64,000 bases of DNA from Candidatus Dormiibacterota bacterium (GTDB lineage Bacteria > Chloroflexota > Dormibacteria > CF-121), in contig DAINCX010000003.1 in assembly GCA_036732165.1 (NCBI GenBank), forward strand, positions 16,685-80,684. The letters run 5' to 3'. This document shows positions 23,265 to 38,640 of the stretch, in pieces (within the stretch, counting starts at the first letter, position 1; each line of letters starts with the position of its first letter). The notes under the pieces are model-generated. The model had not been told where the DNA came from, did not search any database, and was given only the letters and a program-made list of their open reading frames with translations. The translations under genes and the position numbers were made by a program.

Positions 23265-24452
23265 TCATTCTCGGCCCGCCGCACCCGCCCGGTAACGCGA
23301 GCGGCCGACGGTCGCGACGACCGTAACAACGGTCGCCATGCCGGCGGCGAGCAGGAAGAGCAATCCGTAATCGGCGCGTCCGGCAAGCCCGGCCACACCG
23401 GCGGTGCTGAGGGCACCGCCGACGAACGCCGCGCCGGCGAAGAGTGCGACGGCGGTCCCTCGCGCCGCCGGTGCCACATCTGTCGCCCAGGTCTGGATGC
23501 TGGAATGGAGGAAGGCAAAGCCGAAGCCGACCAGGGCGCTCGCGGCAAGGATTCCGACCAGGGTCTGGTCAAGAGTGGCGACGCCGTAGCCGGCAACGGT
23601 TCCCAGCCCGCCCAGCGTCATCAGCGGCACCGCGTTCGTCTTCCCGATGAGCGGCTTCATGGCCTGGGTCATGACGATCACCGTCAGTCCGTAGGTCGCG
23701 ACCACCAACCCGGCCAGGCCGGCCTTGATCCCGCGCGACTCGAGGGAGGGCGCGAAATACGTCAGGAAGCCGAACATGATCGCACCCTCCCCGAAGCCAA
23801 GCACGATCACGTAAAGCGCCCACCCGTTACGGAGGACGGCGCCGAGGCGGTCGAGAGGTCCCATCGCCAAGTCCTCTCGTGAGGGTTCCTTAAGCCGTCT
23901 CAGCACAACGGCGAGAATCGCGGCGAGTACCGCCGTCCCGCCGAAGGCCAGCCGCCAACTAAAGAACTGGGCGAGCAAGCCGGCTCCGAGGCTGCCGACC
24001 GCGGTGCCAACGGCGGTCGCGGCCAGCAAGTCGGCGATTACCGGCTGGCGCCGCGAAAATGGGAAGACATCGCCGACATACACGAGCGAGGCCGGGAAGA
24101 CCGCGGCAAAGAATGCCCCCGCCAGCCCTCGCGTGACGATGATCACGGCCAGGTTGGGCGCCAGCGCCGAGGCGAACCCGGCCGTAGCCGCGCCAGCCAG
24201 CCCGATCCGCATCACCGTCAGACGGCCAAATCGGTCTGAGAGCAGGCCCCAGACGGGCTGCATCAGACCGTAGACGAGGTAGTAGACGGAGGCGGTCGCG
24301 ACGATGGCGCCGACCGGCGTCTGCAGGTCGCGCGCGATCGGGATCAGGAGCGGGGCGATCGAGAAGCGGTCAACCGTGGCGGTGCAGGCGGCGGCGTAGA
24401 TCAGGAGCGCACTGCCCCGCAGCCGGGTGGCCGCCGGGCTGGCGACTACCAG
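23265..24452 (-). CDS. MFS transporter; probable CTG start overlapping the gabD stop
   Basis: GLLSDRFGR motif A, ~12 hydrophobic segments; frame open 63 codons upstream of ATG 24263 with TM-like residues. Confidence 0.82.
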   Translation of the reverse strand: MVVASPAATRLRGSALLIYAAACTATVDRFSIAPLLIPIARDLQTPVGAIVATASVYYLVYGLMQPVWGLLSDRFGRLTVMRIGLAGAATAGFASALAPNLAVIIVTRGLAGAFFAAVFPASLVYVGDVFPFSRRQPVIADLLAATAVGTAVGSLGAGLLAQFFSWRLAFGGTAVLAAILAVVLRRLKEPSREDLAMGPLDRLGAVLRNGWALYVIVLGFGEGAIMFGFLTYFAPSLESRGIKAGLAGLVVATYGLTVIVMTQAMKPLIGKTNAVPLMTLGGLGTVAGYGVATLDQTLVGILAASALVGFGFAFLHSSIQTWATDVAPAARGTAVALFAGAAFVGGALSTAGVAGLAGRADYGLLFLLAAGMATVVTVVATVGRSRYRAGAAGRE

Positions 24453-25903
24453 GCGGTTGCGATGTACTTGGTCTCGAGGAACTCCAGCAATCCCTCGTGC
24501 GAGCCTTCGCGGCCAACGCCGCTCTGCTTGACGCCGCCGAACGGCGCCGCAGGGTCGGAGATGAAGCCCCGGTTGAGGCCCACCATGCCCGATTCAATCG
24601 CTTCCGCGACCCTGAGGCCGGTGGCCAGCTCGCGCGTATAGACATACGAGGCGAGCCCGCGGTCGGTCTTGTTGGCGAAGTCGATCGCTTGATCAACCGT
24701 TTCGAAGGTCACGATCGGCGCGATCGGGCCAAAGATCTCTTCCTTGAGGATGTGTTCGTCCGGCCGCACCTGGCTCAGCACAGTCGGCGGGACGAAATAG
24801 CCGGGGCGGTCGGTGACCTTGCCACCGGTCAGCACGCGGGCGCCGTGGCCGACCGCCTCCTCGACGAGGCCCAGCATCGTCTTCCGCGCGGGCTCGTTGA
24901 TGACGGGGCCGACCTTGACATTGGCGTCCAGGCCAGAACCGACCGGGAGGGCGCCCATGGCCCGCGCCAGCATGTCGGCGAACTTCTCGCCGACCTTCGC
25001 GTCCACGTAGAAGCGGTTCGCGGCGATACAGGACTGGCCGGTGTTGCGCATCTTGGCCACGAGGGCGCCCTCCAGCGCAGCATCGAGATCGGCGTCGGCC
25101 AGCACGATGAACGGGGCGTTGCCGCCCAGCTCCATCGAGCAGCTGATCACGTTCTCCGCCGCCTGCGCGAGCAGGATGCGACCGACCTCGGTCGATCCTG
25201 TGAAGGACAGCTTGCGCACCCGCGGGTCCTTGAGCATGGCCTTGACCACCTCCGACGAACGCTTCGACGGGATGACGTTGACCACGCCTTTCGGCACCCC
25301 CGCCTGCTCGAGCAGGTCGGCCACCGCCAGCGCCGACAGCGGCGTCTCCGAGGCCGGCTTCAACACCACGGTGCAGCCGGCCGCCAGCGCCGGCCCGATC
25401 TTGCGAGTGGCCATCGCGGCCGGGAAGTTCCAGGGCGTGATCAGCACCGAAACCCCGATCGGCTGGTGCTCGACGAGAATCCGGTTGGCGCCGCTGGGCG
25501 CGATCGAGACCGAGCCGATGTTGCGCACCGCCTCTTCCGAGAACCAGCGGAAGAATTCCGCCGCGTAGGCGACCTCCCCCAGGGCTTCGGCCAGCGGCTT
25601 GCCGTTCTCCCGGACCATCAGCTCGGCGAGCTTCTCGCGGTCCCGGAGCATCAGCTCGAAGGCCTTGCGCAGGATCTCAGCCCGTTCCCGTGGCGGTCGC
25701 GCGGCCCAGGGCCGGAAGGCGTCGGAGGCCGCTTGCACGGCGGCCAACGCATCCTGCACCGAGGCACTCGCCACCGTCGAGATCGCCTCGCCGGTCGCGG
25801 GGTCTGCCACCTCGATCCGCTGGCCGTCCGACGCGGGGCGCCATGACCCGCCGACATAGAGGTCGGTGTGCCGGACGGAGATCAACTCACTGACCGGGGT
25901 CAT
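24446..25903 (-). CDS. gabD: NAD(P)-dependent succinate-semialdehyde dehydrogenase
   Basis: ITPWNFP, FTGSTEVG, MELGGNAP, NTGQSCIAANR, EEIFGP, PFGGVKQSG. Confidence 0.88.
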   Translation of the reverse strand: MTPVSELISVRHTDLYVGGSWRPASDGQRIEVADPATGEAISTVASASVQDALAAVQAASDAFRPWAARPPRERAEILRKAFELMLRDREKLAELMVRENGKPLAEALGEVAYAAEFFRWFSEEAVRNIGSVSIAPSGANRILVEHQPIGVSVLITPWNFPAAMATRKIGPALAAGCTVVLKPASETPLSALAVADLLEQAGVPKGVVNVIPSKRSSEVVKAMLKDPRVRKLSFTGSTEVGRILLAQAAENVISCSMELGGNAPFIVLADADLDAALEGALVAKMRNTGQSCIAANRFYVDAKVGEKFADMLARAMGALPVGSGLDANVKVGPVINEPARKTMLGLVEEAVGHGARVLTGGKVTDRPGYFVPPTVLSQVRPDEHILKEEIFGPIAPIVTFETVDQAIDFANKTDRGLASYVYTRELATGLRVAEAIESGMVGLNRGFISDPAAPFGGVKQSGVGREGSHEGLLEFLETKYIATAW

Positions 25904-26874
25904 CGCATTGATTTTCGCACGGTCTGGACGATTCGTTCGGCCGAGGGCATCGCTGCATCCTCCAGCACGTCGGCCGCCGGCAGCGGCACGTGCGGCGTCG
26001 TGATCCGGACGATCGGGCCGTCCAGGTCGTCGAAGGCCTCGTCGGCCACGATCGAGGCAATCTCGGCACCCCAGCCACAGAGCCGCGGATTCTCCTCGAC
26101 GGTGAAGAGCCGGCCGGTCTTCCGCACCTCCGTGAGGATCGTCCGGGTATCGAGGGGGACCAGGCTGCGAACGTCGACCACGGTTGCCATGATGCCCTCG
26201 CCCTCGAGCCGGTCGGCCGCCTCGAGCGCCTTTTGGACCATCGCGGCGAGCGCGAGGATGGTGCAGTCCTTCCCGTTACGCAAGACTTTCGCCGTTCCAA
26301 GCCGATCGACGTGCTCGCCGTCGGGCACCTCGCCCTTGATCCCGTAGAGCGATTTCTGCTCGAAGAACAAGACCGGGTCCGGGTCGCGGATCGCGGCCGC
26401 CAGCAGCCCCTTGGCGTCGGCGGGGTTCGACGGGGCGACCACCTTCAGGCCTGGCACCGCCATCGCCCAATTCTCGAGGCTCTGCGAGTGCTGCGCCCCG
26501 AAGCGCGTGCCCCCGCCGTTGGCGGTCCGAATGACCAGCGGGAGCGAGACCTGCCCGTCGGTCATATAGCGGGTCTTCGCCACCTGGTTCGCGATCATGT
26601 CCCAGCAGGTGGCCAGAAAGTCGGAGAACATGATTTCGGCCACCGGCCGAAGGCCGGTCATCGCCGCGCCCATGGCCGCCCCGATGATCGCCTGCTCCGA
26701 GATGGGCGTGTCGCGGACGCGCTCCGGGCCAAAGCGCTCGAAGAGCCCCACGGTCGCCTTGAACACGCCGCCGGCGGCCCCGATGTCCTCGCCGATGAAA
26801 TAGACCATCTCATCGCGGGCCATCTCTTGGGCGATCCCCGCCGCCACGGCCTCGCGGAAGCTCAGTTCCGCCAT
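25900..26874 (-). CDS. TPP-dependent dehydrogenase E1 beta subunit (AcoB/PdhB-like)
   Basis: DTPISEQAIIG, EIMFSDF, GAQHSQS, VDVRSLVPLD. Confidence 0.92.
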   Translation of the reverse strand: MAELSFREAVAAGIAQEMARDEMVYFIGEDIGAAGGVFKATVGLFERFGPERVRDTPISEQAIIGAAMGAAMTGLRPVAEIMFSDFLATCWDMIANQVAKTRYMTDGQVSLPLVIRTANGGGTRFGAQHSQSLENWAMAVPGLKVVAPSNPADAKGLLAAAIRDPDPVLFFEQKSLYGIKGEVPDGEHVDRLGTAKVLRNGKDCTILALAAMVQKALEAADRLEGEGIMATVVDVRSLVPLDTRTILTEVRKTGRLFTVEENPRLCGWGAEIASIVADEAFDDLDGPIVRITTPHVPLPAADVLEDAAMPSAERIVQTVRKSMR

Positions 26875-27875
26875 GCCGCACCCCCATCGCTCCAGACCTG
26901 GCGCTCGATCTCATCGACCCGCGCCGGTGCGCCGTTGCGTGCTTCCTCCGTCGCTAGATCCACCTTCTGCTGGGCCCGGGTTTCGATCTCGCTCGCCTCC
27001 GCCTCGGTGACCCCCGCGCCGAGCAGCCGCTCCCGGTAGCGCTTCACCGGGTCACGACTCAGCCATTCCCGCACCTCGGCGTCGGGCCGGTACTTGCCAG
27101 GATCCGCGCGAGAGTGCCCGCCGTGGCGATAGGTGAGGGCCTCGACCAGCGATGGGCCGCCCCCGTTGCGGGCCTTCTCGATCGTCGTGCGAGCCGTGTC
27201 GTACATGACGTCCGCGTCGTTGCCGTCCACCAGGATCGACTCCAGCCCATACGCCGATGCGCGGTCGGCGGCGGGATGCTCCACGGCCGTGACCGAGCGG
27301 ATCGGCGTGTACTCCATGTAGCCGTTGTTCTCGCAGACGAACACGACCGGCAGCGCCCAGATCACCGCGAGGTTGAGGGCCTCGTGGAAGGCGCCGATGT
27401 TGGTGGTACCGTCGCCGAAGAAGCAGGCGGCGACCTGCCCCGATTTTCGGACCTGCGCCGACCAGGCGGCGCCGGCCGCGATCGGTAGGTGGGCGCCCAC
27501 GATCGCGTAGGAACCCATCGCGCCGTGGGCGACGTCGGTCAGGTGCATCGATCCACCCTTTCCGTGCAGCATGCCGTTGCCACGTCCGAGCAGCTCGGCC
27601 ATGGCCGCGGCCATCGACGCGCCGCGCGCCAGCGTGTGCCCGTGACCGCGATAGGTGCAGAAGGTGTAATCGTCCGGCCGCATCGCCACGCCATACCCGG
27701 CGGCGATGGCCTCCTGGCCAAGGGCGAGGTGGCTCGTCCCGCGCACGAGATTCTCGAGGAAGAGCTCGTAGGCGCGTTGCTCGAAGTCACGGAGCTCGAC
27801 CATCAGCTCATACAGGCGCAGCCGGGTCGGGCGGTCGACGTCCGCGGTCCGCCGCTTCTCGATCTTGGTGCTCAC
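26862..27875 (-). CDS. TPP-dependent dehydrogenase E1 alpha subunit (AcoA/PdhA-like)
   Basis: HLALGQEA, TYRGHGH, GKGGSMH, FGDG...CENN TPP motif, TYRHGGHS. Confidence 0.92.
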   Translation of the reverse strand: MSTKIEKRRTADVDRPTRLRLYELMVELRDFEQRAYELFLENLVRGTSHLALGQEAIAAGYGVAMRPDDYTFCTYRGHGHTLARGASMAAAMAELLGRGNGMLHGKGGSMHLTDVAHGAMGSYAIVGAHLPIAAGAAWSAQVRKSGQVAACFFGDGTTNIGAFHEALNLAVIWALPVVFVCENNGYMEYTPIRSVTAVEHPAADRASAYGLESILVDGNDADVMYDTARTTIEKARNGGGPSLVEALTYRHGGHSRADPGKYRPDAEVREWLSRDPVKRYRERLLGAGVTEAEASEIETRAQQKVDLATEEARNGAPARVDEIERQVWSDGGAAWRN

Positions 27876-27894
27876 GGGCCCTCCTTTTACGGAT

Positions 27895-29157
27895 TCAGTA
27901 GGGGTTCGCGATGACGAGCTCTTCCGCCGGAAAGAGGGTGATCACCTCGTGCCCGGTCGCGGTTACCACGATCTCTTCCTCGATGCGCGCCGCCGAATGC
28001 CCGTCGCTGGCGGGGCAGTAGGTCTCCAGCGCGAAGACCATGCCTTCTTTCAGCTCCACCGGGTGGTCGAGGGAATTGAGCCGGCTGATGATGGGCCGCT
28101 CGTGCAGCGCCAGACCGAGGCCATGGCCGAACTGCAGCCCGAAGGCCTCCATCTCGCTGTCGAAGCCGAAATCCTGCGCTTTCGGCCAGGCCTTCGCGAT
28201 GGCATCGGTCGCCACGCCCGGCTTCACCATGTCGATGCCGGCGTCGATCCACTCGCGGGCCTTCTTGTAGGCGTCGCGCTGGCTCTGCGTGGCGCGGCCC
28301 ACGTTGAAGGTCCGGTAATAGCAGGTCCGGTAGCCGTTGTACGACTGGATGATGTCGAAGAAGGCCTGGTCCCCGGGACGGATCAACCGATCCGAAAACA
28401 CGTGGGGGTGCGGGCTGCAGCGCTCGCCCGAGACGGCGTTGATGGCCTCGACGTCGTCCGAGCCCATGTCGTATAGCTGTTTGTTCGCGATGGCGACGAT
28501 CTCGTTTTCCCGGATGCCCGGCTTGAGCACTTCATAGATCGTCTGGTAGACACCGTCGACCAGCGCCGCCGACATGCTGAGCAAGGTGATCTCGTCGCCC
28601 GATTTGATCTGTCGGGCATCGAGCATCGCCTGTTGTCCGTCGACCACCTTTATGCCGCACTTCTGCAGGGCGAAGACCATCGGAATCTCGGCGATGTCGA
28701 CCCCGAGGGGCTCACCCGCCACACCGTGCTCGCGCATGGTGTCTTTCACCGTGCGGGCCACGTCGTCGGAGAGACCGGCCTCTGGCGCGACCGAGCCGCG
28801 CAGGCCGGTCATGCCGGCTCGCGAGTTCTCGGGCTTGAGCCATGGGGCATGCAGCCGATGCGCCTTCGCCGCCGAGCCGAAGTCCCACAAGATCGGTTCG
28901 CCGGTTCGAGTGAGGAGGGCAAAACGCGCCACCTTGTCGCGGGCCCACTCGCCGATGGTGGTACTCGTGATGTAGCGGATGTTGTTCATGTCGAAGACCA
29001 GAACCGCCCCGAGCCCCGCGTTTAAGACCGCCTGCCGGGCGCGGCCCAGCCGGTAGTCATGAAGGCGGCGGAAATCGACCCGCTCCTCCCAGTCCACATG
29101 CATCCGGCCGGGTGCCGGCACCGAGGTCACCGTGAACTCGGACTTAGCCCTCGCCAT
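27895..29157 (-). CDS. M24 family (creatinase/prolidase-like) hydrolase, atypical metal site
   Basis: Creatinase-like N domain; GHGLGLALHE, FALETY, ARIEEEIVVT; RTCYYRTF in place of SD.TRTF. Confidence 0.85.
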   Translation of the reverse strand: MARAKSEFTVTSVPAPGRMHVDWEERVDFRRLHDYRLGRARQAVLNAGLGAVLVFDMNNIRYITSTTIGEWARDKVARFALLTRTGEPILWDFGSAAKAHRLHAPWLKPENSRAGMTGLRGSVAPEAGLSDDVARTVKDTMREHGVAGEPLGVDIAEIPMVFALQKCGIKVVDGQQAMLDARQIKSGDEITLLSMSAALVDGVYQTIYEVLKPGIRENEIVAIANKQLYDMGSDDVEAINAVSGERCSPHPHVFSDRLIRPGDQAFFDIIQSYNGYRTCYYRTFNVGRATQSQRDAYKKAREWIDAGIDMVKPGVATDAIAKAWPKAQDFGFDSEMEAFGLQFGHGLGLALHERPIISRLNSLDHPVELKEGMVFALETYCPASDGHSAARIEEEIVVTATGHEVITLFPAEELVIANPY

Positions 29158-30097
29158 CCGCCGCCTCCAGCCCGTCGGACACGGTGCGCCGCTCCGGTTC
29201 GAGCGTCAGGTTCGCCCCCCGGGCCTCGAGCTCAAGGAGCGCGGCGAAGTCGAGGTCGCCCAGACCGTCGCCGATCAGGTTCACCACGATCTGGTGGGTG
29301 AGTGCCGACACCGGCAGCGGTACATTCAGCTGCCGGGCCGCATCCAGTCCGAGCTCGAAATCCTTGCGCAGCAGATGACCGGTGAAGGTGGGCGTGAAGT
29401 CGAGGTTGACGAGGGCTGGCGTCTTGTAGCGACTGAAAGTAGAGCCCATGACGCTGCCGTTGATGAACTCCAGGTAATCAGCTCGCTTGATCCCGCCGCG
29501 CTCCGCCAGCACCGTCGTCTCGGCCAGAATCTGCGTCACAACCCCGAGGATCAGGTTGTGGCAGATTTTGACCAGCCGTGCCGCCTCGCCCTCGCCGACG
29601 TAGGTCACGCGTCGACCCATCATCTCGAGGTAGGGGAGGGCTTGCTCGAAGGCCTCGCGCGGCCCCGACACGGCCAGGCTGAGCTTCCCGGCGCGGGCCA
29701 CCTTCGGGTTGCCGCTGACCGGGGCAGCGAGCAGCGCGCAGCCGAGTTGCTGAGCACGCTCGCGGATCTCGCGGGACACATCCATCGAGACCGTCGAGGT
29801 GTCGATGACCATCCCGGGAACCCGGCCGCGGTCGGCGAGGAGCCCATGGGCGCCCGTCATCACCTCGGCGAAATCCCGGGAGGAGGCCAGGGAGGTCAGC
29901 ACGATATCGCGGTCGGCCAGGTCGGCCGGCTGATCGGCGATCCGTGCCCCAAGCCGGGCAAGGGGCTCGGCCTTGGCACGGGTGCGGTTCTGGACCGTGA
30001 CGTCGCACCCGGCCTCGAGCAGTCGCGCCGCGAGTACGGAACCCATCCGGCCGGTGCCGATCCAGCCGAGCGTGTGATGGTTGGCTGCCGCGCTCAT
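29144..30097 (-). CDS. NAD(P)-dependent beta-hydroxyacid dehydrogenase (HIBADH/6PGD family)
   Basis: GWIGTGRMG, IDTSTVS, APVSGNP, VKICHN. Confidence 0.9.
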   Translation of the reverse strand: MSAAANHHTLGWIGTGRMGSVLAARLLEAGCDVTVQNRTRAKAEPLARLGARIADQPADLADRDIVLTSLASSRDFAEVMTGAHGLLADRGRVPGMVIDTSTVSMDVSREIRERAQQLGCALLAAPVSGNPKVARAGKLSLAVSGPREAFEQALPYLEMMGRRVTYVGEGEAARLVKICHNLILGVVTQILAETTVLAERGGIKRADYLEFINGSVMGSTFSRYKTPALVNLDFTPTFTGHLLRKDFELGLDAARQLNVPLPVSALTHQIVVNLIGDGLGDLDFAALLELEARGANLTLEPERRTVSDGLEAADGEG

Positions 30098-30130
30098 ATG
30101 GCTCCCCTCCTGCTGACGGTCGAGCGTCGC

Positions 30131-30174: not shown

Positions 30175-30185
30175 TTTCGCGCGCT

Positions 30186-31345: not shown

Positions 31346-32572
31346 ATGCGTAAGTCCGTTTTGATGAGCCTGGCGGGGTTCGCCCTGATTCTCTGCGCCT
31401 GTGGCAATGGCACGGGCTCGACCGGCGGCTCGCCGCAGGCCGCGGCGCCGATCACCATCGGGGTTTCGCTCTCGCTCAGCGGCGACTTCTCGGGCGATGG
31501 AAAAGCGTTGAAGCAGGGCTACGACCTGTGGGCCCAGGACATCAATGCAAAAGGCGGGTTGCTCGGACACAAGGTCACCATGAAATACGTGGATGATGCC
31601 AGCAACACGCAGCAGGTCGTGACCAATTACCAGAGCCTGATCACCCAGGACAAGGTCGCGCTCGTCTTCGGACCCTTCAGTTCCCTGTTGACGATCCCGG
31701 CTTCCACGGTGACCGACCGCTATAACTATGCCTTCCCGGAGCCGGCCGGCGGTGGCCCGCAGGTCTTCGCGCGCGGCCTGCACAGCATCTTCTTTGTGCA
31801 ACCCGCCGCTGTCGAGGACAACCTGGTCAGCTATACGAAATGGCTGCTCGCGCTCCCCACCGGACAGCGGCCGAAAACTGCCGCCTACGCCACGCAGGAC
31901 GATCCGTTCACCCAACCGCAGGTCGACAAGGCGAAAAAATTGCTCGAGGCCGGCGGCGTCAGCACCGCCTCCTACAAGGTGTACCCGGCGGAGACCACGG
32001 ACTTCACGGCGCTGGCCTTGCAGGTCGTCCATTCCAACGCCGACGTCGTCATCCTGGGCACCCAGGAACCTGATGCCGTGGCCTTCGTCAAGACCTTCCA
32101 GCAACAGCATTACAACCCGAAGTCCCTGATCGAGACCACCGGTCCGGACCAGGGCAAGGACTTTGCCGACAAGGTCGGCGCCGCCAATACGGAGGGCATC
32201 ATGGTGCCCGCGGGCTGGACGCCGCAGGCGAAAGCGTATGGCAACTCCACCTTCGTCAACGAGTTCGTCGCGAAGTATGGCGGGCAGCCAGGCGACATCA
32301 GTGCCGACGCGGCCGAGGCCTACAGCGTCGGCCAGGTCGTGGACCAGGGGTCCAAGAAAGCCAACAGCATCGACAACAAGGCCTTGATCACCGCCCTGCA
32401 TTCCGGCACGTACGAGACCGTCCAGGGGCCGATGTCCTTCGACAGCAGCGGCAAGCCGCAGGGTGGGGTCGGGGTCTACATCGAGCAGTGGCAGGGAGGT
32501 CAGGCGGTCTTCGTCTATCCGCCGACCGTCGCCAGCGGCAAGCCCCAGTATCCGAAGCCCAACTGGCCGTAA
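31346..32572 (+). CDS. Liv-type ABC transporter substrate-binding lipoprotein
   Basis: Signal peptide with lipobox-like ILCAC; IGVSLSLSG, INAKGGLLG, DDAS, FGPFSS. Confidence 0.9.
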   Translation: MRKSVLMSLAGFALILCACGNGTGSTGGSPQAAAPITIGVSLSLSGDFSGDGKALKQGYDLWAQDINAKGGLLGHKVTMKYVDDASNTQQVVTNYQSLITQDKVALVFGPFSSLLTIPASTVTDRYNYAFPEPAGGGPQVFARGLHSIFFVQPAAVEDNLVSYTKWLLALPTGQRPKTAAYATQDDPFTQPQVDKAKKLLEAGGVSTASYKVYPAETTDFTALALQVVHSNADVVILGTQEPDAVAFVKTFQQQHYNPKSLIETTGPDQGKDFADKVGAANTEGIMVPAGWTPQAKAYGNSTFVNEFVAKYGGQPGDISADAAEAYSVGQVVDQGSKKANSIDNKALITALHSGTYETVQGPMSFDSSGKPQGGVGVYIEQWQGGQAVFVYPPTVASGKPQYPKPNWP

Positions 32573-32632
32573 CCAGAGTCAGGGGACGGTGACCAGCCGG
32601 CGCCGTCCCCACCGGGTGCGCCCGGCCGCGCG

Positions 32633-33508
32633 ATGAGTCTCGTCATCGAGGCCGCCGTCCTCGGCGTCCTCACCGGCGGTGTCTACGCGTTGATGGCCTC
32701 CGGCCTGACGCTCATCTTCGGCGTGATGCGCATCATCAATGTCGGGCACGGTGCGCTGGTCGTCCTGGGCGCCTACCTCAGCTTCGCGCTCTTCCGGTCG
32801 ATCCATATGGATCCGTTTCTCAGTCTTGTCATCACCATGCCGGTGATGTTCGCGATCGGCGTGGCGCTGCAACTCGTCTTCGTGCGACCACTCAAGACGG
32901 ATCGCGAAGCGCTCTCCGTCCTGGTCACCTACGCGCTTGCCCTGGGGATCGAGGGCACCCTCGGCTACGTCTTCACTACCAACTATGTCGAGCTGCGCGG
33001 CTGGTATGAAACGGCCAGCTTTGCCGTCTTTGGCTTCCATATCACCTACGTGTACGTTTTTGGCTTTCTCCTGTGCGTCGCGATCCTCCTGGCGTTGTTT
33101 CTCATGCTGTACCGCACCAGCTTCGGCGGCGCGATCCGCGCGACGATGCTGAACCGGACCGCGGCCCAGTTGATCGGCGTCGATGTCGACCGGGTTTCGG
33201 CGCTCGCCTTCGGCGTCGGGGTTGCCACGGCAGCGGCCGGCGGCGTGGTCTTCGGGGTCACCAACGCCTTCAATCCGGGCAGCCATTACGATCTGATCTC
33301 GCGACTGCTCACGATCATCGTGCTGGGCGGTCTCGGCAGCCTGCGCGGAGCGATCCTGGCCGCCCTGATCATGCTGGTGACCGAGGACGTGACCTCGGTC
33401 GTCATCTCGCCGGTCTGGGCGAGCTTCGCGTTCTTCGTGATTCTCGTCGCGGTATTGATCGTACGGCCGCAGGGCCTCTATGGCGTCCGCGCCCGGGACC
33501 GCATATGA
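32633..33508 (+). CDS. Liv-type ABC permease (LivH-like)
   Basis: YALMASGLTLIFGVMRIINVGHG, IVLGGLGS. Confidence 0.92.
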   Translation: MSLVIEAAVLGVLTGGVYALMASGLTLIFGVMRIINVGHGALVVLGAYLSFALFRSIHMDPFLSLVITMPVMFAIGVALQLVFVRPLKTDREALSVLVTYALALGIEGTLGYVFTTNYVELRGWYETASFAVFGFHITYVYVFGFLLCVAILLALFLMLYRTSFGGAIRATMLNRTAAQLIGVDVDRVSALAFGVGVATAAAGGVVFGVTNAFNPGSHYDLISRLLTIIVLGGLGSLRGAILAALIMLVTEDVTSVVISPVWASFAFFVILVAVLIVRPQGLYGVRARDRI

Positions 33509-34503
33509 CGGTTGGCCCGATGCACGTTGGGCTCCCCCGCATGGCGCTGATCAAGGCGCTGGGGTTGGTCGTGCTCGCGGTCGCGGCGCTGATGCTGCCG
33601 CTGATCGCACCCGACCCGGGGACGACCAACATCGCGGTCTTCACGATGATGTACGTGGGACTGGCGACCGCCTGGAACATCATGGGAGGCTACACCGGCT
33701 ACATTTCCCTCGGGCACGCCGCCTTTTTTGGCTTCGGGGCGTACGCGCTGGGCCTCCTCCTCGTTCACCTCAATATCACGCCGGGCTATGCGCCCTTCCT
33801 CCTGGTTCCCGTGGCTGGGCTGCTGACGGCCGTGCTCGCCGTGGGCATCGGCTGGATCGCCTTGAGGACACGGGCGGCGACCTTCGTCATCGTGACCATC
33901 GCCTTCATGTTCATGCTCCAGCTCCTGGCGGAGAACCTTGTCACGCTGACGGGCGGCGGAGCCGGGCTGGGGTTGCCATACCCGCACGATTGGGGTGGCG
34001 ACTTCTTCAACACCCCGTACTACTACGCGATGCTCGCGCTGGCCGTCCTCGCGCTGGCGGTCTCCTGGTGGATTCGCCGGTCGAAGTTCGGGCTCGGCTT
34101 GCTGGCGATCCGCGACGATGAGGACAAGGCGCTGGCCGTTGGCGTCCGAACTCGTGCCTTCAAGCTCACCGCTTACGTAGCCAGCGCGGCGATCGTCGGC
34201 ATGATCGGCGGCGTGTACGGCTACTACGTGACCTATATCTACCCGCAGTTCGTCATCGACCCACTGATCGGCCTATCGATGGTGCTGATGGCGTTTCTTG
34301 GCGGCCTGGGCACGCTGAGCGGTCCCGTAATCGGTGCCGTCCTGCTCGAGCCGACGCAGCTCGAGTTCGCCTATCGGTTCGGCGCCAGCCGGTTGTACCT
34401 CGTCTTCTATGCGGCGGTCTTTCTCACCGTCATCCTCCTGCTGCCTCGTGGCATCGTGCCGTCGGTCGCCGACCTGGTCCGGCGTCGGCGACTGTCGCCA
34501 TGA
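33505..34503 (+). CDS. Liv-type ABC permease (LivM-like)
   Basis: WNIMGGYTGYISLGHAAFFG, AIRDDE, FLGGLGTLSGP; ATGA overlap. Confidence 0.92.
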   Translation: MTVGPMHVGLPRMALIKALGLVVLAVAALMLPLIAPDPGTTNIAVFTMMYVGLATAWNIMGGYTGYISLGHAAFFGFGAYALGLLLVHLNITPGYAPFLLVPVAGLLTAVLAVGIGWIALRTRAATFVIVTIAFMFMLQLLAENLVTLTGGGAGLGLPYPHDWGGDFFNTPYYYAMLALAVLALAVSWWIRRSKFGLGLLAIRDDEDKALAVGVRTRAFKLTAYVASAAIVGMIGGVYGYYVTYIYPQFVIDPLIGLSMVLMAFLGGLGTLSGPVIGAVLLEPTQLEFAYRFGASRLYLVFYAAVFLTVILLLPRGIVPSVADLVRRRRLSP

Positions 34504-35231
34504 GCCTGCTCGAAGTCGACAACCTTTCCCGGCGATTCGGCGGCGTGCTGGCGGTCGACGGATGCACCCTCGCGGTGGAGGCCGGCAGCATCACCGGGTT
34601 GATCGGCCCGAACGGCTCCGGGAAGACGACGGTCTTCAACCTCGTCACGGGCTTTATTCCCCGGGACAGTGGCGACATCCGGTTCAAGGCCCGATCCATC
34701 GCCGGCCTTGGGCCCGACCGAATCTACGGCCTCGGCATCGCCCGCACCTTTCAGCTGGCGAGGATCTTTCCTCGGCTGACCGCCCTCGAGAACATGCTCG
34801 TCCCGGTGCGGCGAGCCGGCCTGGGCGGGCTGTTCGCCCGCGCCCAACGGGGGCATGAGAAGGCTCGCGCGATGGAGATGCTCGAGTTCATGGAGATCAG
34901 TCATGTCGCCGGAACCCTCGGCGGCGCGCTCTCCTACGGGCAGCGCAAGCTGCTGGAGCTGGGTGCGGTGATGATGGCGGCCCCCGAGCTGGTCCTGCTC
35001 GACGAGCCTGCCGGTGGCGTCAACCCGGCGCTGCTGGAGCGGATCGCCGACCACCTCAGGCGGCTGAACCGGCAGGGGGTCACCTTCCTGCTGGTGGAAC
35101 ACAACATGAGCTTCGTGATGCAGCTGTGCCACGATGTGGTGGTCCTCAATGCGGGGCGTCCGATCGCGAAGGGCACGCCGCAAGCGGTGCGGGCGGATCC
35201 CGCCGTCCTCGATGCCTACCTGGGCGCCTGA
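34500..35231 (+). CDS. Liv-type ABC ATPase (LivG-like)
   Basis: GPNGSGKT, LSYGQRK, LLDEPAGG, EHNM. Confidence 0.93.
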   Translation: MSLLEVDNLSRRFGGVLAVDGCTLAVEAGSITGLIGPNGSGKTTVFNLVTGFIPRDSGDIRFKARSIAGLGPDRIYGLGIARTFQLARIFPRLTALENMLVPVRRAGLGGLFARAQRGHEKARAMEMLEFMEISHVAGTLGGALSYGQRKLLELGAVMMAAPELVLLDEPAGGVNPALLERIADHLRRLNRQGVTFLLVEHNMSFVMQLCHDVVVLNAGRPIAKGTPQAVRADPAVLDAYLGA

Positions 35232-35951
35232 ATGACCGAGCTTCTGCACCTCCAGGGCGTGACCGCCGGCTACGGAGGCGGCGATATCTTGCAGGAGCTG
35301 GATCTCTCCGTCGAACGTGGCGCCATCACCTGCATCGTCGGTCCCAATGGCGCCGGCAAGTCGACCGTGTTGCGCGTCGTCAGCGGCTTGCTTCGCCCGC
35401 GGCTCGGCGGGGTTCGTTTCCGTGGAGTGTCGATCGTCGGCATGAGCCCGCGCGCCATCCTTGGCCTGGGGATCGTGCACGTGCCGCAAGAACGGAGCCT
35501 GTTTCCGACCATGTCGGTCTGGGAGAACGTGCGCATGGGGGCCTATACCGTGCGTGACCAGGCCCTCGTGGAGCGCCGGTTGGAGGCCGTGTGTGACAGT
35601 TTTCCGATCGTCCGCGAACGCCGCCGGGACCTGGCGGCGTCGCTCTCCGGCGGACAGCAGAAGATCGTGGAGTTCGCTCGGGCCTTGATGCTGGATCCGG
35701 TGCTGGTCCTCCTCGATGAGCCGTCCATGGGCCTCGATCCCAAGACGCGATCGTTGGTGTTCGAGACCATCCGCACCATGAACCAGGCGGGGAGGACCCT
35801 CCTGCTGGTCGAGCAGAATGCGCGATCCGGGCTCGGGCTGGCCAGCCACGGCGTGGTGCTGGAGAGTGGCCGGGTGCGGCTGGAGGGGGAGGGGGCAGCC
35901 GTCCTCGCCAATCCGGAGATCGGCCGGCTCTACCTTGGGGCGACGGCATGA
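35232..35951 (+). CDS. Liv-type ABC ATPase (LivF-like)
   Basis: GPNGAGKS, LSGGQQ, LLDEPSMGL, VEQN. Confidence 0.93.
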   Translation: MTELLHLQGVTAGYGGGDILQELDLSVERGAITCIVGPNGAGKSTVLRVVSGLLRPRLGGVRFRGVSIVGMSPRAILGLGIVHVPQERSLFPTMSVWENVRMGAYTVRDQALVERRLEAVCDSFPIVRERRRDLAASLSGGQQKIVEFARALMLDPVLVLLDEPSMGLDPKTRSLVFETIRTMNQAGRTLLLVEQNARSGLGLASHGVVLESGRVRLEGEGAAVLANPEIGRLYLGATA

Positions 35952-37573
35952 GCGCGTGGGACGTCATCGTCGCCGGCGCTGGCCACAACAGCTTGCTGAC
36001 GGCGGCCTACGCCGCGCGAGCCGGCTTCAAGGTCCTGGTCCTCGAAGGCGCTGACCGGATCGGGGGGGATACCGCGTGCGAGGAACTCACGCTGCCCGGC
36101 TTCATCCACGACCCGTGCTCAACGGCGCACAACCTGATCCAGAGCAACCCGCTGATGCGGGACAACGAGTTGCAGCTCGATCGCTACGGCCTGCGCTACC
36201 TCTACCCGGACCCGGTCTTCACGATGCCATTCCGCGACGGGCGCAGCATCACCATGTGGCGGGATCTCGATCGCACCTGCGCTGAGCTGGCGCGCTTCTC
36301 CAGCCGAGATGCGGACGCCTACCGGCGGTTGCTGCAGGACTGGCAGTCGATGGCCCCGGTCGTCAACGACGAGCGCGAGAACGCTCCGCGGCCCCCGGAC
36401 GAGGTGATCGCGCGAACCCGGGCGAGCGCCGTGGGTGAGGCGATGCTCGCGATCCGGCAGTCGAGCGCGCTCGAGGTGATCGAGGAACGCTTCGAAGAGG
36501 AGCACGTCCGGGCGTTCTTCGCCTGGATCGCCTTCATGACGCTGCATCCACTCGACGAGCCCGACAGCGGGCTGATGGCGTTCTCACTGGTCGCCGGGCG
36601 GCAGCGCTTCTCCTGGATTCTGCCTGAGGGGGGCTCGGATCGCCTTCCAAAGGCCCTGGCGCGAATCGTCGAGGAGCACGGCGGCACGATCCTGACCTCG
36701 GCGCCGGTGAGCAGGATCGTGGTCGAGGGTGGCCGGGCGACCGGCGTCGTCACGGCCGATGGCGCCAGCTACTCGGCTCGCAAGGCGGTCGTGTCCACCA
36801 TCCACCTGACCCAGCTCCCTGGCATCGTTGGCGAGGAGAATCTGGCGCCCGCCTACCGCGCCGGGATTGCGCGGTGGAAACCGAGCGTCAGCATGTTTGC
36901 CAGTCACTATGCGCTCAGTGAGGCGCCGCGCTTCAACGCGGAAGGCGGCGCGATGGAAAGCGTGACCATGGGCGGGCTCGACTCGCTGAGCTCGCTTCGT
37001 CGCATGCTCGCGGCCTATCGCCTCGGGCGAGTCGACCTCGAGCAACCGGTCCTCCTCGCCATCACCCCGACCGTGATCGATCCCTCCCGGGCGCCGGCGG
37101 GCAAGCACACCTTCAAGCTGATCAGCTTCCTGCCGTACGAGCTCATGGAGGGGCCAGCGCACTGGGACGCGATCAAGGAGCAGGTCGCGGATCGCCTCTT
37201 CGAGGCCCTGGCTCCGATGACGGCCAACCTGTCGACGCGCATCGTGCTCGGTCGCCACGTCGCCAGCCCCCTCGACATGGAGCGGCGGAATCCCGCCAAC
37301 TGGCGCGGGTCCTGTCACGGCGGCGCCAGCACAGCGGACCAGAGCGGATACCTCCGTCCCGTCGAGGGCTGGTCATCCTACCGGACACCGGTTGAGGCCC
37401 TGTACCAGACGGGGGCCTGCACCCACCCCGGTGGTTCCGTGTCTGGCCTGCCCGGGCGGAATTGCGCGACCGTGCTACTCAACGATCTCGGCTCGAGCTT
37501 GCAAGCGGCCATCCATCCTCGAGCGGCCAGTACCCTGATGGCCCAGGGCTCATGCCGGGAGAAGGTGGAATGA
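35948..37573 (+). CDS. FAD-dependent oxidoreductase, phytoene-desaturase-like family
   Basis: DVIVAGAGHNSL, IGG...EELTLPGF.HD, SPLDMER, LYQTGACTHPGGSVSGLPG. Confidence 0.88.
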   Translation: MSAWDVIVAGAGHNSLLTAAYAARAGFKVLVLEGADRIGGDTACEELTLPGFIHDPCSTAHNLIQSNPLMRDNELQLDRYGLRYLYPDPVFTMPFRDGRSITMWRDLDRTCAELARFSSRDADAYRRLLQDWQSMAPVVNDERENAPRPPDEVIARTRASAVGEAMLAIRQSSALEVIEERFEEEHVRAFFAWIAFMTLHPLDEPDSGLMAFSLVAGRQRFSWILPEGGSDRLPKALARIVEEHGGTILTSAPVSRIVVEGGRATGVVTADGASYSARKAVVSTIHLTQLPGIVGEENLAPAYRAGIARWKPSVSMFASHYALSEAPRFNAEGGAMESVTMGGLDSLSSLRRMLAAYRLGRVDLEQPVLLAITPTVIDPSRAPAGKHTFKLISFLPYELMEGPAHWDAIKEQVADRLFEALAPMTANLSTRIVLGRHVASPLDMERRNPANWRGSCHGGASTADQSGYLRPVEGWSSYRTPVEALYQTGACTHPGGSVSGLPGRNCATVLLNDLGSSLQAAIHPRAASTLMAQGSCREKVE

Positions 37574-38640
37574 ACGTCGAAACGACCAATCGCGTGCAGG
37601 TGGCCGCCCATCACTGGCGTCCTCGCTTCGTTGCCAACGGGATCGACGTCAACGACTTCGACGACACGGTGGCGAAGACGACCGAGTGGAAAGACTGGGG
37701 CCCCAACTGGCTGGCGGTCGGCGAGATGCACGAGGCCCTCGGCCGCGAGGCCGAGCAGCACGGCCGCACCCTCTCCGCAACCCAGGCATACCAGCGGGCG
37801 GCCTGGTGCTACCACCTGGGGAAGTTCCTGTGGTTTGAAGACCTCGCGGTGCATGGCGACCTGCGGGACCGGTCGGTCGCGATCTATCGCAGGACGCTCC
37901 CGAACCTGGACCCGCCGGCCGAGCGGCTAGAGATTCCCTTCGAGGGCCAGGTCATTCCCGGGCACCTGCGGCGCCCTGCAGGGAATAGCCGGCCAGGCCT
38001 CGTCCTCCTTGTTCCCGGGCTCGACTCCTCGAAGGAGGAGCTTTTCGTGATGGAAGAGGACTTCCTGCGTCGGGGGATGGCGACCCTCACCATCGATGGC
38101 CCGGGTCAATCCGAGAACTCGGTCCACTTCCCGATCCGGGTCAACTGGGAATCGGTGATCACCCCGGTCCTGGACGATCTCGAGCGCCGCGACCTGGGCC
38201 TGGACCTCCGGCGGATCGGTCTGATGGGCATCAGCATGGGCGCGATCTACGGGCCGCGGGCGGCGGCCCACGAGAAACGTCTTACGGCGGTGGTCGGGCT
38301 TTCCGGACCGTACAACCTCGGCGACTGCTGGGACGCCTTGAATCCGCTCACGCGGGGCGGGTATGTCTTCTACACGAAGTCCGCGAACGAGGCCGAGGCG
38401 AAGCGCAAGGCCTACACCCTCAATCTCGAAGGCGTCCTCGACAAGGTGACGCAACCCCTGCTCGTCATTCACGGCGCCCGCGACCGCCTCTTCCCCCCGG
38501 CGCAGGCCGAGCGGATTGCGCGGGAGGCCCGCAACGCGACCCTAGTGATGTACCCGGATGGGAACCACGTCTGCAACAACATTTCCTACAAATACCGGCC
38601 GCTGATGGCGGACTGGATGCGCGAGCAGCTCCACCGGTAG
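37570..38640 (+). CDS. alpha/beta hydrolase, 2,6-dihydroxypseudooxynicotine hydrolase-like
   Basis: PGLDSSKEE, IDGPGQ.E, GISMG nucleophile, GNHVCNN; ATGA overlap. Confidence 0.85.
   Translation: MNVETTNRVQVAAHHWRPRFVANGIDVNDFDDTVAKTTEWKDWGPNWLAVGEMHEALGREAEQHGRTLSATQAYQRAAWCYHLGKFLWFEDLAVHGDLRDRSVAIYRRTLPNLDPPAERLEIPFEGQVIPGHLRRPAGNSRPGLVLLVPGLDSSKEELFVMEEDFLRRGMATLTIDGPGQSENSVHFPIRVNWESVITPVLDDLERRDLGLDLRRIGLMGISMGAIYGPRAAAHEKRLTAVVGLSGPYNLGDCWDALNPLTRGGYVFYTKSANEAEAKRKAYTLNLEGVLDKVTQPLLVIHGARDRLFPPAQAERIAREARNATLVMYPDGNHVCNNISYKYRPLMADWMREQLHR

Follow-up and report, generated by a model that had tools for sequence, protein, structure and literature searches.

The carbon sources of Dormibacterota, which are abundant in soil and uncultured, have largely been guessed, and a stretch of 64,000 nucleotides from a Candidatus Dormiibacterota bacterium (the whole of which is called the window hereafter) raises this question in a concrete form: which compound is consumed by means of the catabolic gene cluster that surrounds a gene for a LacI-family repressor at positions 23265-38640? 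An initial annotation had read the cluster as a two-armed LacI regulon for an N-heterocyclic or amino-acid-like compound, with a pathway ending in succinate semialdehyde. The comparisons described here indicate that it is a real, well-conserved, repressor-controlled catabolic cluster built around an uncharacterised family of M24 enzymes. Very probably, one LacI-family repressor controls two operons through near-identical pseudo-palindromes and responds to a small-molecule inducer, with the right arm importing the substrate and providing two feeder enzymes and the left arm representing an ancient module of many phyla. As for the substrate, the specific model that is preferred, tentatively, is the degradation of short-chain organosulfonates.

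Evidence for one repressor and two operons

Open reading frames, together with Pfam and NCBIfam profile searches read against the curated NCBIfam cut-offs, gave 14 genes in two arms, and every gene family named in the initial annotation was recovered in this way (Table 1). In order of transcription, the left arm (minus strand) comprises lacI, a gap of 88 bases holding a promoter and an operator, and the genes for a 3-hydroxyisobutyrate dehydrogenase-like protein (HIBADH), the M24 enzyme, the alpha and beta subunits of an E1 component, an aldehyde dehydrogenase (ALDH) and a major facilitator superfamily (MFS) transporter. The right arm (plus strand) encodes a binding protein, LivH, LivM, LivG, LivF, a CrtI/CrtO-family flavoenzyme and an alpha/beta hydrolase resembling 2,6-dihydroxypseudooxynicotine (DHPON) hydrolase. 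Most junctions had been said to overlap, and seven do, by 4-14 bases (HIBADH/M24, E1 alpha/E1 beta, E1 beta/ALDH, LivH/LivM, LivM/LivG, LivF/flavoenzyme and flavoenzyme/hydrolase). The lacI gene lies between the arms as annotated, but it is co-directional with the left arm and divergent from the right arm only, and a separate promoter and operator serve the left arm, immediately beyond the lacI stop codon.

The operators announced at 30131 and 31287, each of 13 bp, are present in the form given (GCAAACGTTTGTC and GCAATCGTTTGTC, respectively), and the pattern GCAAWCGTTTGTC has two exact matches in the window, which are these two sites. On the minus strand the left operator reads GACAAACGTTTGC, its half-sites GCAAAC and ACAAAC flanking a central CG; the first of them presumably equals the half-site of the PurR box. 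A possible third operator at 18231 was discarded, since with two mismatches and a position inside the PolX gene it is probably a chance match, of a kind covered by chance expectation. The claim that a sigma70 promoter directly precedes each operator also holds, the two promoters being the sole sigma70-like matches in a consensus scan of 23000-39000. The right operator begins 3 bases past the -10 box of TTGACA-17-TAACAT (plus strand) and the left one 1 base past that of TTGACG-18-TATCGT (minus strand). Operators placed 1-3 bases after the -10 box cover the region of the transcription start, the classical position for repression, so that a bound repressor would block RNA polymerase until released by a small-molecule inducer. 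A candidate promoter for lacI itself, TTGCGT-17-TATGTT, may lie on the strand opposite to the right-arm promoter with the right operator in its spacer, an arrangement that would give autoregulation. Within the near-palindrome CCTATGTTAGG at 31270-31290, which is kept in all Dormibacterota loci inspected, TAACAT, the -10 box of the right arm, overlaps TATGTT, that of the presumed lacI promoter.

That the two arms form the regulon of one LacI is further supported by phylogenetic footprinting, both within Dormibacterota and across phyla. About 95 M24-related loci were considered in all (labelled L001, L002 and so on). Each of the Dormibacterota loci L001-L003 has exactly two copies of the palindrome CAAWCGWTTG, in the same pair of intergenic positions, and the blocks of promoter plus operator are kept while the surrounding intergenic DNA diverges; the left-arm promoter is conserved there as TTGAC..N..TATGTT/TATGGT. 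Across taxa, the M24 loci, 1.48 Mb in total, contain 98 copies of CAANCGNTTG, compared with 9-45 for six control palindromes, and the flanks of the 98 sites (T-G-...-C-A) extend the motif to the consensus TGCAAWCGWTTGCA, with a central CG. The sites are almost all intergenic and are found in Actinomycetota, Alpha- and Gammaproteobacteria, with genes for HIBADH, M24, the binding protein, E1 alpha, the hydrolase, transporters of the tripartite ATP-independent periplasmic (TRAP) type, TonB receptors and molybdenum enzymes downstream of them.

The repressor belongs to the LacI/GalR family, as shown by its helix-turn-helix (HTH) domain (PF00356), the hinge leucine and an effector domain resembling periplasmic binding proteins (PF13377, PF00532, PF13407), and its operator is of the family's type, being a central-CG palindrome located at the promoter and conserved across taxa. 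Its closest named models are RbsR, CytR, PurR and CcpA, and it scores below the cut-off of each. The recognition-helix motif HPSTVSR and the hinge Leu57 are invariant in the LacI proteins of Dormibacterota, Actinomycetota, Alpha- and Betaproteobacteria that are encoded beside the same operator. No Rfam family matched positions 22000-40000, which leaves a riboswitch or other RNA control unsupported.

LacI proteins of this type also accompany sister clusters. Plasmid p4 of Rhizobium bangladeshense (L092) carries the same operator six times and a LacI of 41-45% identity, together with genes for an intradiol dioxygenase, a short-chain dehydrogenase/reductase (SDR), an ALDH, an amidohydrolase, a BKACE protein, a zinc-dependent alcohol dehydrogenase (Zn-ADH), a cupin and a homologue of the DHPON-type hydrolase. 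Such a LacI adjoins a similar dioxygenase cluster in Cupriavidus necator N-1 (pBB2, L094) and Bosea vaviloviae (L095), the operator having been checked, and confirmed, in the Rhizobium cluster only. A similar cluster in Shinella sp. HZN7 (L091) has the hydrolase homologue, a HAAT importer, a glutathione S-transferase (GST) and an IorAB-type molybdenum enzyme, with no LacI gene annotated in the stretch inspected. Amidohydrolase genes or genes for tripartite tricarboxylate (TTT) or HAAT transporters are also carried by the sister clusters.

Conservation and distribution of the module

Nine other Dormibacterota loci (L001-L003, L010-L013, L034 and L093), which keep the two-armed layout as far as each contig reaches, preserve the gene set as a unit, and Actinomycetota preserve it in part. 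M24 homologues with 86-95% identity occur in metagenome-assembled genomes (MAGs) of Candidatus Dormibacteraeota (Dormibacterota) and of “Chloroflexota”. The end of the left arm is variable within Dormibacterota, the ALDH gene being present in the lineage of the window and the MFS gene following it in the window alone. In L001 (13231-14975), L002 (13385-15096) and L034, a short PfkB kinase gene and an Indigoidine_A/PsuG-like (pseudouridine-5'-phosphate glycosidase-like) gene stand in place of ALDH and MFS, and in L093 an OsmC gene is inserted. Pseudouridine or uracil catabolism, as these PfkB and Indigoidine_A genes might suggest, was considered and rejected: the window has no such genes, the PfkB protein weakly matches ribokinase-type models, and the other enzymes would have no role.

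Beyond the phylum, a scan for the motif pattern of the M24 family, with one genome per species, found it in at least 594 loci or species representatives, including roseobacters and SAR11-type genomes. The best 80 of these, at 64-77% identity, come from Actinomycetota, Alpha- and Gammaproteobacteria, Dehalococcoidia, Eremiobacterota and Myxococcales, a Pelagibacteraceae MAG and SAR11-like single-cell genomes among them. Tblastn against plasmids gave M24 proteins with 62-66% identity in Phaeobacter, Tritonibacter, Marinovum, Pacificitalea and Streptomyces, and with 56-57% identity in Paenarthrobacter and Rhodococcus. The search for neighbouring genes that the initial annotation had proposed was carried out with tblastn of the window proteins within 10 kb on either side of M24 at 89 loci: HIBADH was found at 51, E1 alpha/E1 beta at 45, ALDH at 40 and LacI at 34, followed by HAAT components (about 14 of the 89), the DHPON-like hydrolase (14) and the flavoenzyme (9). 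ALDH and HIBADH orthologues with 54-66% identity are present on Streptomyces and roseobacter plasmids, and ALDH orthologues stand beside M24 in other phyla.

The order of the genes varies with the taxon. In roseobacters it is SDR, M24, E1 alpha, E1 beta, lipoyl protein, SSADH-like ALDH (SSADH, succinate semialdehyde dehydrogenase), E2 and sometimes E3, beside an ATP-binding cassette (ABC) system of sugar type, and in Streptomyces sp. YIM 121038 lacI and a binding protein gene are divergent from HIBADH, M24, ALDH, VOC, E1 and E2. In Actinomycetota the genes of the HAAT importer immediately precede HIBADH-M24 within one operon. Loci with full flanks that have HIBADH-M24-ALDH but no E1 number at least six (L030, L043, L044, L055, L063 and L089), which argues that the invariant core consists of the dehydrogenase, M24 and ALDH, with E1 alpha/beta as a frequent accessory rather than a fixed step.

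Some M24 loci have surroundings of another kind. In three SAR11-type loci (L075, L078 and L079, at about 800-19700) an SDR-M24-E1 alpha/beta-ALDH block is found among iolE, iolC, iolB-like, class II aldolase, Gfo/Idh/MocA, aldose-1-epimerase and sugar ABC importer genes, with neither iolD nor iolA in view within 10 kb on either side. On a plasmid of Paenarthrobacter sp. R1 (L006, 9190-16458) the order is RidA, M24, HIBADH-like, SDR and LpdA, beside the sulfonamide-degradation flavin reductase SulR/SadC; this plasmid and pR1CP1 of Rhodococcus opacus 1CP (L007) are rich in mobile elements, and their M24 proteins, 56% identical to that of the window, have the same Cys motif. Six loci of Xanthobacteraceae (L056, L058, L061, L070, L071 and L073) encode an M24 with 67-69% identity without HIBADH, E1 or LacI, beside genes for a MetE-like protein (Meth_synt_2), an AMP-dependent CoA ligase, a GST, a MaoC dehydratase and a different ALDH, a distinct and also undescribed context. 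An analogy with glyoxylate carboligase and tartronate-semialdehyde reductase, drawn from plasmid pHV4 of Haloferax, was set aside as uninformative: the oxidoreductase there is an extended SDR and not a HIBADH and the thiamine pyrophosphate (TPP) enzyme is generic and acetolactate synthase-like.

The M24 signature enzyme

The M24 protein matches PF00557 with E 1.1e-37 over profile positions 6-208 of 208, and is thus a member of the M24 domain family. Alignment with the prolidase of P. furiosus and with DddP places its metal ligands at D268, C279, H345, E378 and E393, so four of the five residues of the canonical Asp, Asp, His, Glu, Glu set are kept and C279 replaces the second, bridging Asp (D220 of 1pv9, D307 of DddP). 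The initial annotation had called the enzyme atypical, an accurate description in view of this Cys, which together with the rest of the motif GYRTCYYRT is invariant in the M24 orthologues. Its nearest characterised relatives are the dimethylsulfoniopropionate (DMSP) lyase DddP, a C-S lyase, and the ectoine hydrolase DoeA, and the closest solved structures are those of DddP (4s01/4rzy). Both equivalog models reject it, with 119.7 bits against a cut-off of 600 for DddP and 86.3 against 613 for DoeA. From these comparisons, the Cys-variant M24 is taken as an uncharacterised enzyme family and as the signature of the module.

Genes for Nramp-family Mn/Fe transporters stand beside two independent M24 loci (L055, 13739-14989; L090, pHV4 of Haloferax volcanii, 14077-15294), which hints at a requirement of M24 for Mn2+ or Fe2+. 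A function of M24 as dihydrophloroglucinol cyclohydrolase (DPGC) was rejected, since DPGC belongs to the cyclase family and not to M24.

The remaining enzymes and transporters

The ALDH is a member of its superfamily (PF00171, E 1e-163) that aligns with E. coli GabD (3jz4) at E 8.5e-145 and is about 50% identical to true SSADHs. The catalytic motifs ELGGNAP and GQSC are intact, and R167, R286 and S449 occupy the anion-binding positions, which we take to correspond to R164, R283 and S445 of GabD. Its scores remain below both SSADH cut-offs (TIGR01780, 583.4 against 646.35; NF008415, 539.8 against 828), and one of its matches among solved structures, 8c54, is presumably a sulfolactaldehyde dehydrogenase of the same family. 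Of the pathway end proposed in the initial annotation, succinate semialdehyde, the assignment of the ALDH to the SSADH family therefore stands; the specific substrate is weakened by the two sub-threshold scores, by the presence of sulfolactaldehyde dehydrogenases in this family and by the replacement of the ALDH in three Dormibacterota relatives.

The E1 beta subunit exceeds the cut-off of a pyruvate dehydrogenase (PDH) E1 beta subfamily model (NF006667, 377 bits against 321). E1 alpha (PF00676, E 5e-71) falls under that of TIGR03182 (320 bits against 394), with human PDH E1 alpha as its best solved relative (E 1e-53), and its residues 154-184 hold the TPP motif GDG-x26-NN, as expected for an E1 alpha/beta pair. 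Cognate E2 and E3 genes are absent from the cluster and from the Dormibacterota and Actinomycetota loci, and present in roseobacter and many proteobacterial loci. The best NCBIfam models for HIBADH all give scores under their cut-offs: tartronate-semialdehyde reductase (171 bits), HIBADH (156), L-threonate dehydrogenase (133) and sulfolactaldehyde reductase (103). The MFS protein matches PF07690 (E 1.6e-44) at profile positions 48-346 only, its best NCBIfam models being efflux pumps of the Bcr/CflA types. Its frame is open to about 24467, overlapping the ALDH stop codon, and the translation upstream of the annotated frame encodes the conserved first transmembrane segment without an ATG, GTG or TTG; the true start therefore probably lies upstream of the annotated frame. 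Within 24264-24467 (minus strand), either the CTG at 24452 serves as the start or the start has been damaged. No MFS orthologue follows ALDH in the related loci.

In the right arm, a binding protein, two permeases and two ATPases encoded in one operon constitute a HAAT (LivJHMGF) importer. The binding protein (PF13458, E 1e-51) matches the LivJ and UrtA models weakly, and its best solved relatives, at 57-70 bits, bind amino acids or amides. The flavoenzyme scores 307 bits against the CrtO cut-off of 1000 and aligns with the phytoene desaturase 4dgk at E 2.5e-16. The DHPON-type hydrolase is a true homologue, as had been annotated, matching 2jbw over 337 residues (E 1.2e-46, 32-33% identity) and also AntI and Ayg1-like proteins, AntI and Ayg1 being retro-Claisen enzymes of its family that shorten polyketides. 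The residues that we take to be the Ser-Asp-His triad of 2jbw have Ser222 (in GISMG), Asp305 (HGARDRL) and His333 (DGNHVC) as their aligned counterparts, so that the triad appears intact. Neither the window nor the related loci provide a nicotine-pathway context for it: no nicotine genes were found there, and the pAO1-type genes are 32% identical.

Which substrate?

The core enzymes, the repressor and the operator recur in at least 594 species representatives from soil and ocean, and the substrate is therefore probably a common environmental compound. In general terms, the HIBADH-type enzyme and the SSADH-type ALDH could oxidise the primary alcohol of a small anionic compound through the aldehyde to the acid, the Cys-variant, DddP-like M24 could perform a bond-breaking step, the PDH-like E1 alpha/beta could take the resulting 2-oxoacid, and the MFS pump could export a product. 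In the organosulfonate model this would become a pathway in which dihydroxypropanesulfonate (DHPS) is oxidised by the HIBADH-type enzyme to sulfolactaldehyde and by the ALDH to sulfolactate, which M24 would split into pyruvate and sulfite by beta-elimination, in analogy to the cleavage of DMSP by DddP. Pyruvate would pass to E1 alpha/beta and sulfite would leave through the MFS pump, as it would through TauE/SafE in other taxa. A C2 variant is conceivable, with isethionate or taurine giving sulfoacetaldehyde and E1 acting like Xsc. The model is preferred because it turns the trio into a complete route from DHPS through sulfolactaldehyde and sulfolactate to pyruvate and sulfite, and explains why a PDH-like E1 is optional; its absence from at least six loci is expected if its substrate is a common 2-oxoacid.

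Several observations agree with this model. The closest characterised relative of M24 is a C-S lyase, and the HIBADH and SSADH families contain a sulfolactaldehyde reductase and (presumably, in 8c54) a sulfolactaldehyde dehydrogenase. Few accessories are commoner than TauE/SafE genes, which account for 8 of about 266 immediate neighbours and are located beside M24 or LacI or directly after HIBADH behind an operator. In L020 an operator precedes genes for an SsuA-family binding protein, a permease and a rhodanese, which are placed between LacI and HIBADH; after the module in Streptomyces (L005) come genes for an ABC system of SsuA type, an LLM monooxygenase and a flavin reductase. The regulon's TRAP binding protein, which matches 9dsy at E 1e-109 and belongs with the DctP proteins for malate/succinate, would fit only if it took up sulfolactate as a malate analogue, the two compounds being plausibly isosteric.

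A number of points weigh on the other side. The window has no TauE, SsuA or other sulfur-specific gene, and the TRAP binding protein, which had been considered as the DHPS receptor HpsK, is a canonical DctP protein instead. HIBADH is nearer to the models of tartronate-semialdehyde reductase and HIBADH than to that of sulfolactaldehyde reductase, and the ALDH gives 454 bits with 8c54, the presumed sulfolactaldehyde dehydrogenase, against 486-494 with true SSADHs. The flavoenzyme and the DHPON-type hydrolase are unexplained by sulfonates, and so are the molybdenum hydroxylase, GST, Amidohydro_2, cyclase and CN_hydrolase genes of orthologous regulons, the iolE/iolC/iolB-like genes of the SAR11-type loci and the PfkB/PsuG-like genes of some Dormibacterota. 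A dedicated E1 for pyruvate seems redundant, and full-text literature searches found no link between M24 and sulfonates. The most novel form of the proposal, that the Cys-variant M24 is a new kind of C-S lyase which frees sulfite from sulfolactate or a related sulfonate and defines, with the HIBADH- and SSADH-type enzymes, an unrecognised LacI-controlled desulfonation pathway, is a doubtful possibility. If it were true, desulfonation would occur in hundreds of species, from Dormibacterota and Actinomycetota to roseobacters and SAR11-type bacteria, and a missing major route of the global organosulfur cycle would have been found.

The reading of the initial annotation, the lower pathway of an N-heterocyclic or hydroxy-aromatic compound, is considered unlikely. 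It would have the flavoenzyme and the hydrolase remove an acyl side chain from a ring resembling dihydroxypyridine or phloroglucinol, M24 hydrolyse the ring or an amide bond, E1 decarboxylate a 2-oxoacid (2-oxoglutarate or 2-oxoglutaramate, for example) to succinate semialdehyde, and ALDH form succinate. The hydrolase, 33% identical to DHPON hydrolase with an intact triad, and the SSADH-family ALDH with its conserved anion-binding residues suit this scheme, yet no ring-cleaving or ring-hydroxylating enzyme is encoded in the window, and among the 89 loci the hydrolase accompanies M24 in 14 only and the flavoenzyme in 9. Indirect support comes from the orthologous regulons of other taxa, in which IorAB-type molybdenum hydroxylases occur at about seven loci (behind an operator in L042) and Amidohydro_2, GST/maleyl-isomerase-like, cupin, cyclase-family and CN_hydrolase genes are found. 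L022 combines a GST, a CN_hydrolase and a hydrolase of 69% identity, and L084 the hydrolase, a cyclase-family enzyme and M24, combinations with presumable counterparts in the pAO1 and 2-hydroxypyridine pathways, namely their omega-amidase and ring-opening steps. The sister LacI regulon of Rhizobium, Bosea and Cupriavidus, with its intradiol dioxygenase, SDR, BKACE and Zn-ADH genes (operator checked in Rhizobium only), the hydrolase homologue that Rhizobium and the similar Shinella cluster carry, and the M24 of 56% identity found on the R. opacus 1CP plasmid and also beside the sad genes for sulfonamide/aminophenol point the same way. The TauE/SafE, SsuA-type and rhodanese genes, in contrast, speak for the competing organosulfonate model. 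Further points against ring degradation are that it does not account for TauE and SsuA, that in the marine versions the ABC importers are of sugar type and the SDRs of polyol type, and that E1 is dispensable where ALDH is retained.

Those marine versions would suit a sugar-derived, cyclitol-type route, in which a dehydrogenase would form a keto-cyclitol or ketose, M24 would carry out a beta-elimination like IolE, E1, in a role comparable to that of IolD or acetoin dehydrogenase, would open or cleave the 1,2-dione or alpha-ketol formed, and ALDH would oxidise the aldehyde-acid released. LacI-family regulators usually sense sugars or nucleosides, and the closest models here are RbsR, CytR and PurR; roseobacter and gammaproteobacterial loci have RbsB-type and family-1 sugar binding proteins, two SDRs of the acetoin-reductase/polyol type, ThuA and the full E1/E2/E3 set; and in the SAR11-type loci iolE (393 bits, cut-off 290), iolC (303, cut-off 300) and iolB-like genes surround the SDR-M24-E1 alpha/beta-ALDH block. 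The route is nevertheless quite improbable: the window and the Actinomycetota versions lack iol and sugar genes and have an amino-acid-type importer, the ALDH retains residues that bind short-chain anions, and the iol genes may merely share a catabolic island with the block, iolD possibly lying outside the 10 kb inspected on either side. That importer would suit an N-acyl-beta-alanine, and a hydroxy-acid amide route of the classical pantothenate type can be drawn with M24 as a pantothenase-like amidase yielding the 4-hydroxy acid, HIBADH as pantoate 4-dehydrogenase and ALDH as aldopantoate dehydrogenase yielding dimethylmalate, the product of which would reach E1 alpha/beta as 2-oxoisovalerate while the flavoenzyme oxidised the released beta-alanine. 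Dehydrogenase, M24 and ALDH would then match the consecutive activities EC 3.5.1.22, 1.1.1.106 and 1.2.1.33, for which we know of no assigned genes; aldopantoate is a substituted succinate semialdehyde, and an optional 2-oxoacid E1 would suit 2-oxoisovalerate. This route is the least probable of those weighed: except for a malic enzyme in L007, no gene of the isopropylmalate-dehydrogenase or malic-enzyme type, needed for the dimethylmalate step, was found in the about 95 loci, E1 is nearer to PDH than to branched-chain E1, the TauE, SsuA, sugar ABC, molybdenum-enzyme and hydrolase genes are unexplained, and pantothenate seems too scarce for so widespread and conserved a regulon. It is, finally, improbable that the two arms serve different ends, one (importer and feeder enzymes) being devoted to a single compound and the other, as a self-standing lower module, receiving several upstream routes, so that the window would not encode a complete route from uptake to central metabolism. 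In favour of such a division, accessories, comprising various enzymes and transporters of the HAAT, sugar, TRAP, TTT, TonB and SsuA kinds, vary strongly from taxon to taxon, the last left-arm genes are interchangeable in Dormibacterota, and M24 of Xanthobacteraceae lacks HIBADH, E1 and LacI and stands beside MetE-like, CoA-ligase and GST genes. The arms, however, share their promoter and operator architecture and occur together in all Dormibacterota loci with enough sequence, and in Actinomycetota the HAAT importer is joined to the operon directly upstream of HIBADH-M24.

Gene content and genomic context

Table 1. Genes, promoters and operators of the cluster, with their positions in the window
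Feature	Position	Strand	Evidence
MFS transporter, efflux (DHA1/Bcr-like) type, last left-arm gene	23265-24263	-	PF07690
ALDH, SSADH-family NAD(P)+ aldehyde dehydrogenase	24446-25903	-	PF00171
E1 beta, TPP-dependent 2-oxoacid/acetoin dehydrogenase	25900-26874	-	PF02779, PF02780
E1 alpha, PDH-like	26862-27875	-	PF00676
M24, Cys-variant metalloenzyme of the creatinase/prolidase fold	27895-29157	-	PF00557
HIBADH-like beta-hydroxyacid dehydrogenase, first left-arm gene	29144-30097	-	PF03446, PF14833
Left operator GCAAACGTTTGTC	30131-30143		Exact match; position and sequence kept in related loci
Left-arm promoter TTGACG-18-TATCGT, extended TG	30174-30145	-	Consensus scan; between lacI stop and HIBADH
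LacI/GalR-family repressor	30186-31241	-	PF00356, PF13377, PF00532, PF13407
Right-arm promoter TTGACA-17-TAACAT	31255-31283	+	Consensus scan
Right operator GCAATCGTTTGTC	31287-31299		Exact match; kept in related loci
Binding protein, lipoprotein-type, of HAAT (Liv/Urt-type) ABC importer	31346-32572	+	PF13458
LivH-like HAAT permease	32633-33508	+	Open reading frame; PF02653 in orthologues
LivM-like HAAT permease	33505-34503	+	Open reading frame; PF02653 in orthologues; ATG at 33505 overlaps LivH stop
LivG-like ABC ATPase	34500-35231	+	PF00005, PF12399 in orthologues
LivF-like ABC ATPase	35232-35951	+	PF00005, PF12399 in orthologues
FAD oxidoreductase, CrtI/CrtO-family, amine-oxidase fold	35948-37573	+	PF01593
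DHPON-hydrolase-family alpha/beta hydrolase (retro-Claisen C-C hydrolase family)	37570-38640	+	Match to 2jbw

The genes that flank the cluster, a GGDEF/EAL sensor upstream and a DUF2680 protein downstream, are unrelated to it. On the left, genes encode a PolX-PHP polymerase (17769-19517), a family III CoA-transferase (19536-20447) and a GAF/PAS/GGDEF/EAL protein (20606-23245), and on the right an HdrD-like CCG/4Fe-4S protein (40155-42536), an ABC-2 exporter (42690-44422) and methylmalonyl-CoA mutase with a carboxyltransferase (45714-48934).

Novelty and significance

The initial annotation had not recognised the gene set as a described pathway. Full-text literature searches (nicotine, pyridine, trigonelline, ectoine, sulfoglycolysis and phloroglucinol) gave no published match for it either; the trigonelline pathway, in which TgnD is an alpha/beta hydrolase, was covered by these searches without a comparison of the TgnC and TgnD families. 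Nor did they return a description of the regulog or of the operator strings. Given the recurrence of its core enzymes and operator in hundreds of soil and marine species, the cluster probably conceals a common nutrient pathway that has not been described. With M24 proteins 86-95% identical among many MAGs, this is among the best-conserved catabolic regulons of Dormibacterota, and by way of the conserved operator the regulon can be defined directly in any genome. Moreover, cultured carriers such as Phaeobacter inhibens, Streptomyces sp. YIM 121038, Kibdelosporangium philippinense, Planotetraspora thailandica and Rhodoplanes tepidamans make the question tractable.

Comparison with known systems

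Judged by its sequence, the cluster resembles pieces of the pAO1 nicotine, DddP/DoeA, C3-sulfonate and acetoin/pyruvate dehydrogenase systems and belongs as a whole to none of them. With the lower nicotine pathway of pAO1 from Paenarthrobacter nicotinovorans (DHPON hydrolase, MABO/MAO, SSADH and omega-amidase) it shares a DHPON-hydrolase homologue, a flavoenzyme of the amine-oxidase fold and an SSADH-family ALDH. It differs in the 32-33% identity of the hydrolase, in having neither nicotine/6-hydroxynicotine genes nor a 2,6-dihydroxypyridine hydroxylase, and in a flavoenzyme that is CrtI/CrtO-like and not MABO/MAO-like; to our knowledge, M24, HIBADH and E1 have no counterpart in pAO1. The cleavage of DMSP and oxidation of 3-hydroxypropionate by DddP with DddA/DddC, and the degradation of ectoine by DoeA with DoeC, offer the precedent of a non-peptidase M24 paired with an alcohol dehydrogenase and/or an SSADH-like ALDH, whereas the M24 of the window is far under the DddP and DoeA cut-offs, has Cys and not Asp as its second ligand, and is accompanied by no DoeB/DoeD or DddT/DddD partners.

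C3-sulfonate catabolism (HpsN/HpsOP, the sulfolactaldehyde reductase YihU, a GabD-type sulfolactaldehyde dehydrogenase, the sulfolactate sulfo-lyase SuyAB and the sulfite exporter TauE) shares the families of two of its three steps (HIBADH-type and SSADH-type), the TauE/SafE and SsuA-type transporters of orthologous regulons and a pyruvate-type E1 downstream. No SuyAB, HpsN or Xsc homologue was seen, in contrast, and an M24 acting as the lyase would be unprecedented. The E1 alpha/beta pair is of the heterotetramer type of the acetoin (AcoABCL) and pyruvate dehydrogenases and has their TPP motif, and in roseobacters and many Proteobacteria E2 follows E1, with or without E3; the cluster of the window and the Actinomycetota loci differ in having no E2/E3, as do several otherwise complete modules in having no E1.

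Like the regulons of the PurR, RbsR, CytR and CcpA type, that of the window has a repressor with an HTH, a hinge helix and an effector domain resembling periplasmic binding proteins, together with a 14-bp central-CG palindrome that covers the transcription start. It differs in a LacI that scores below every named regulator model and in genes that are apparently for non-sugar catabolism, with a HAAT importer. The regulatory logic, as read from these features, is that of ordinary LacI-family repression.

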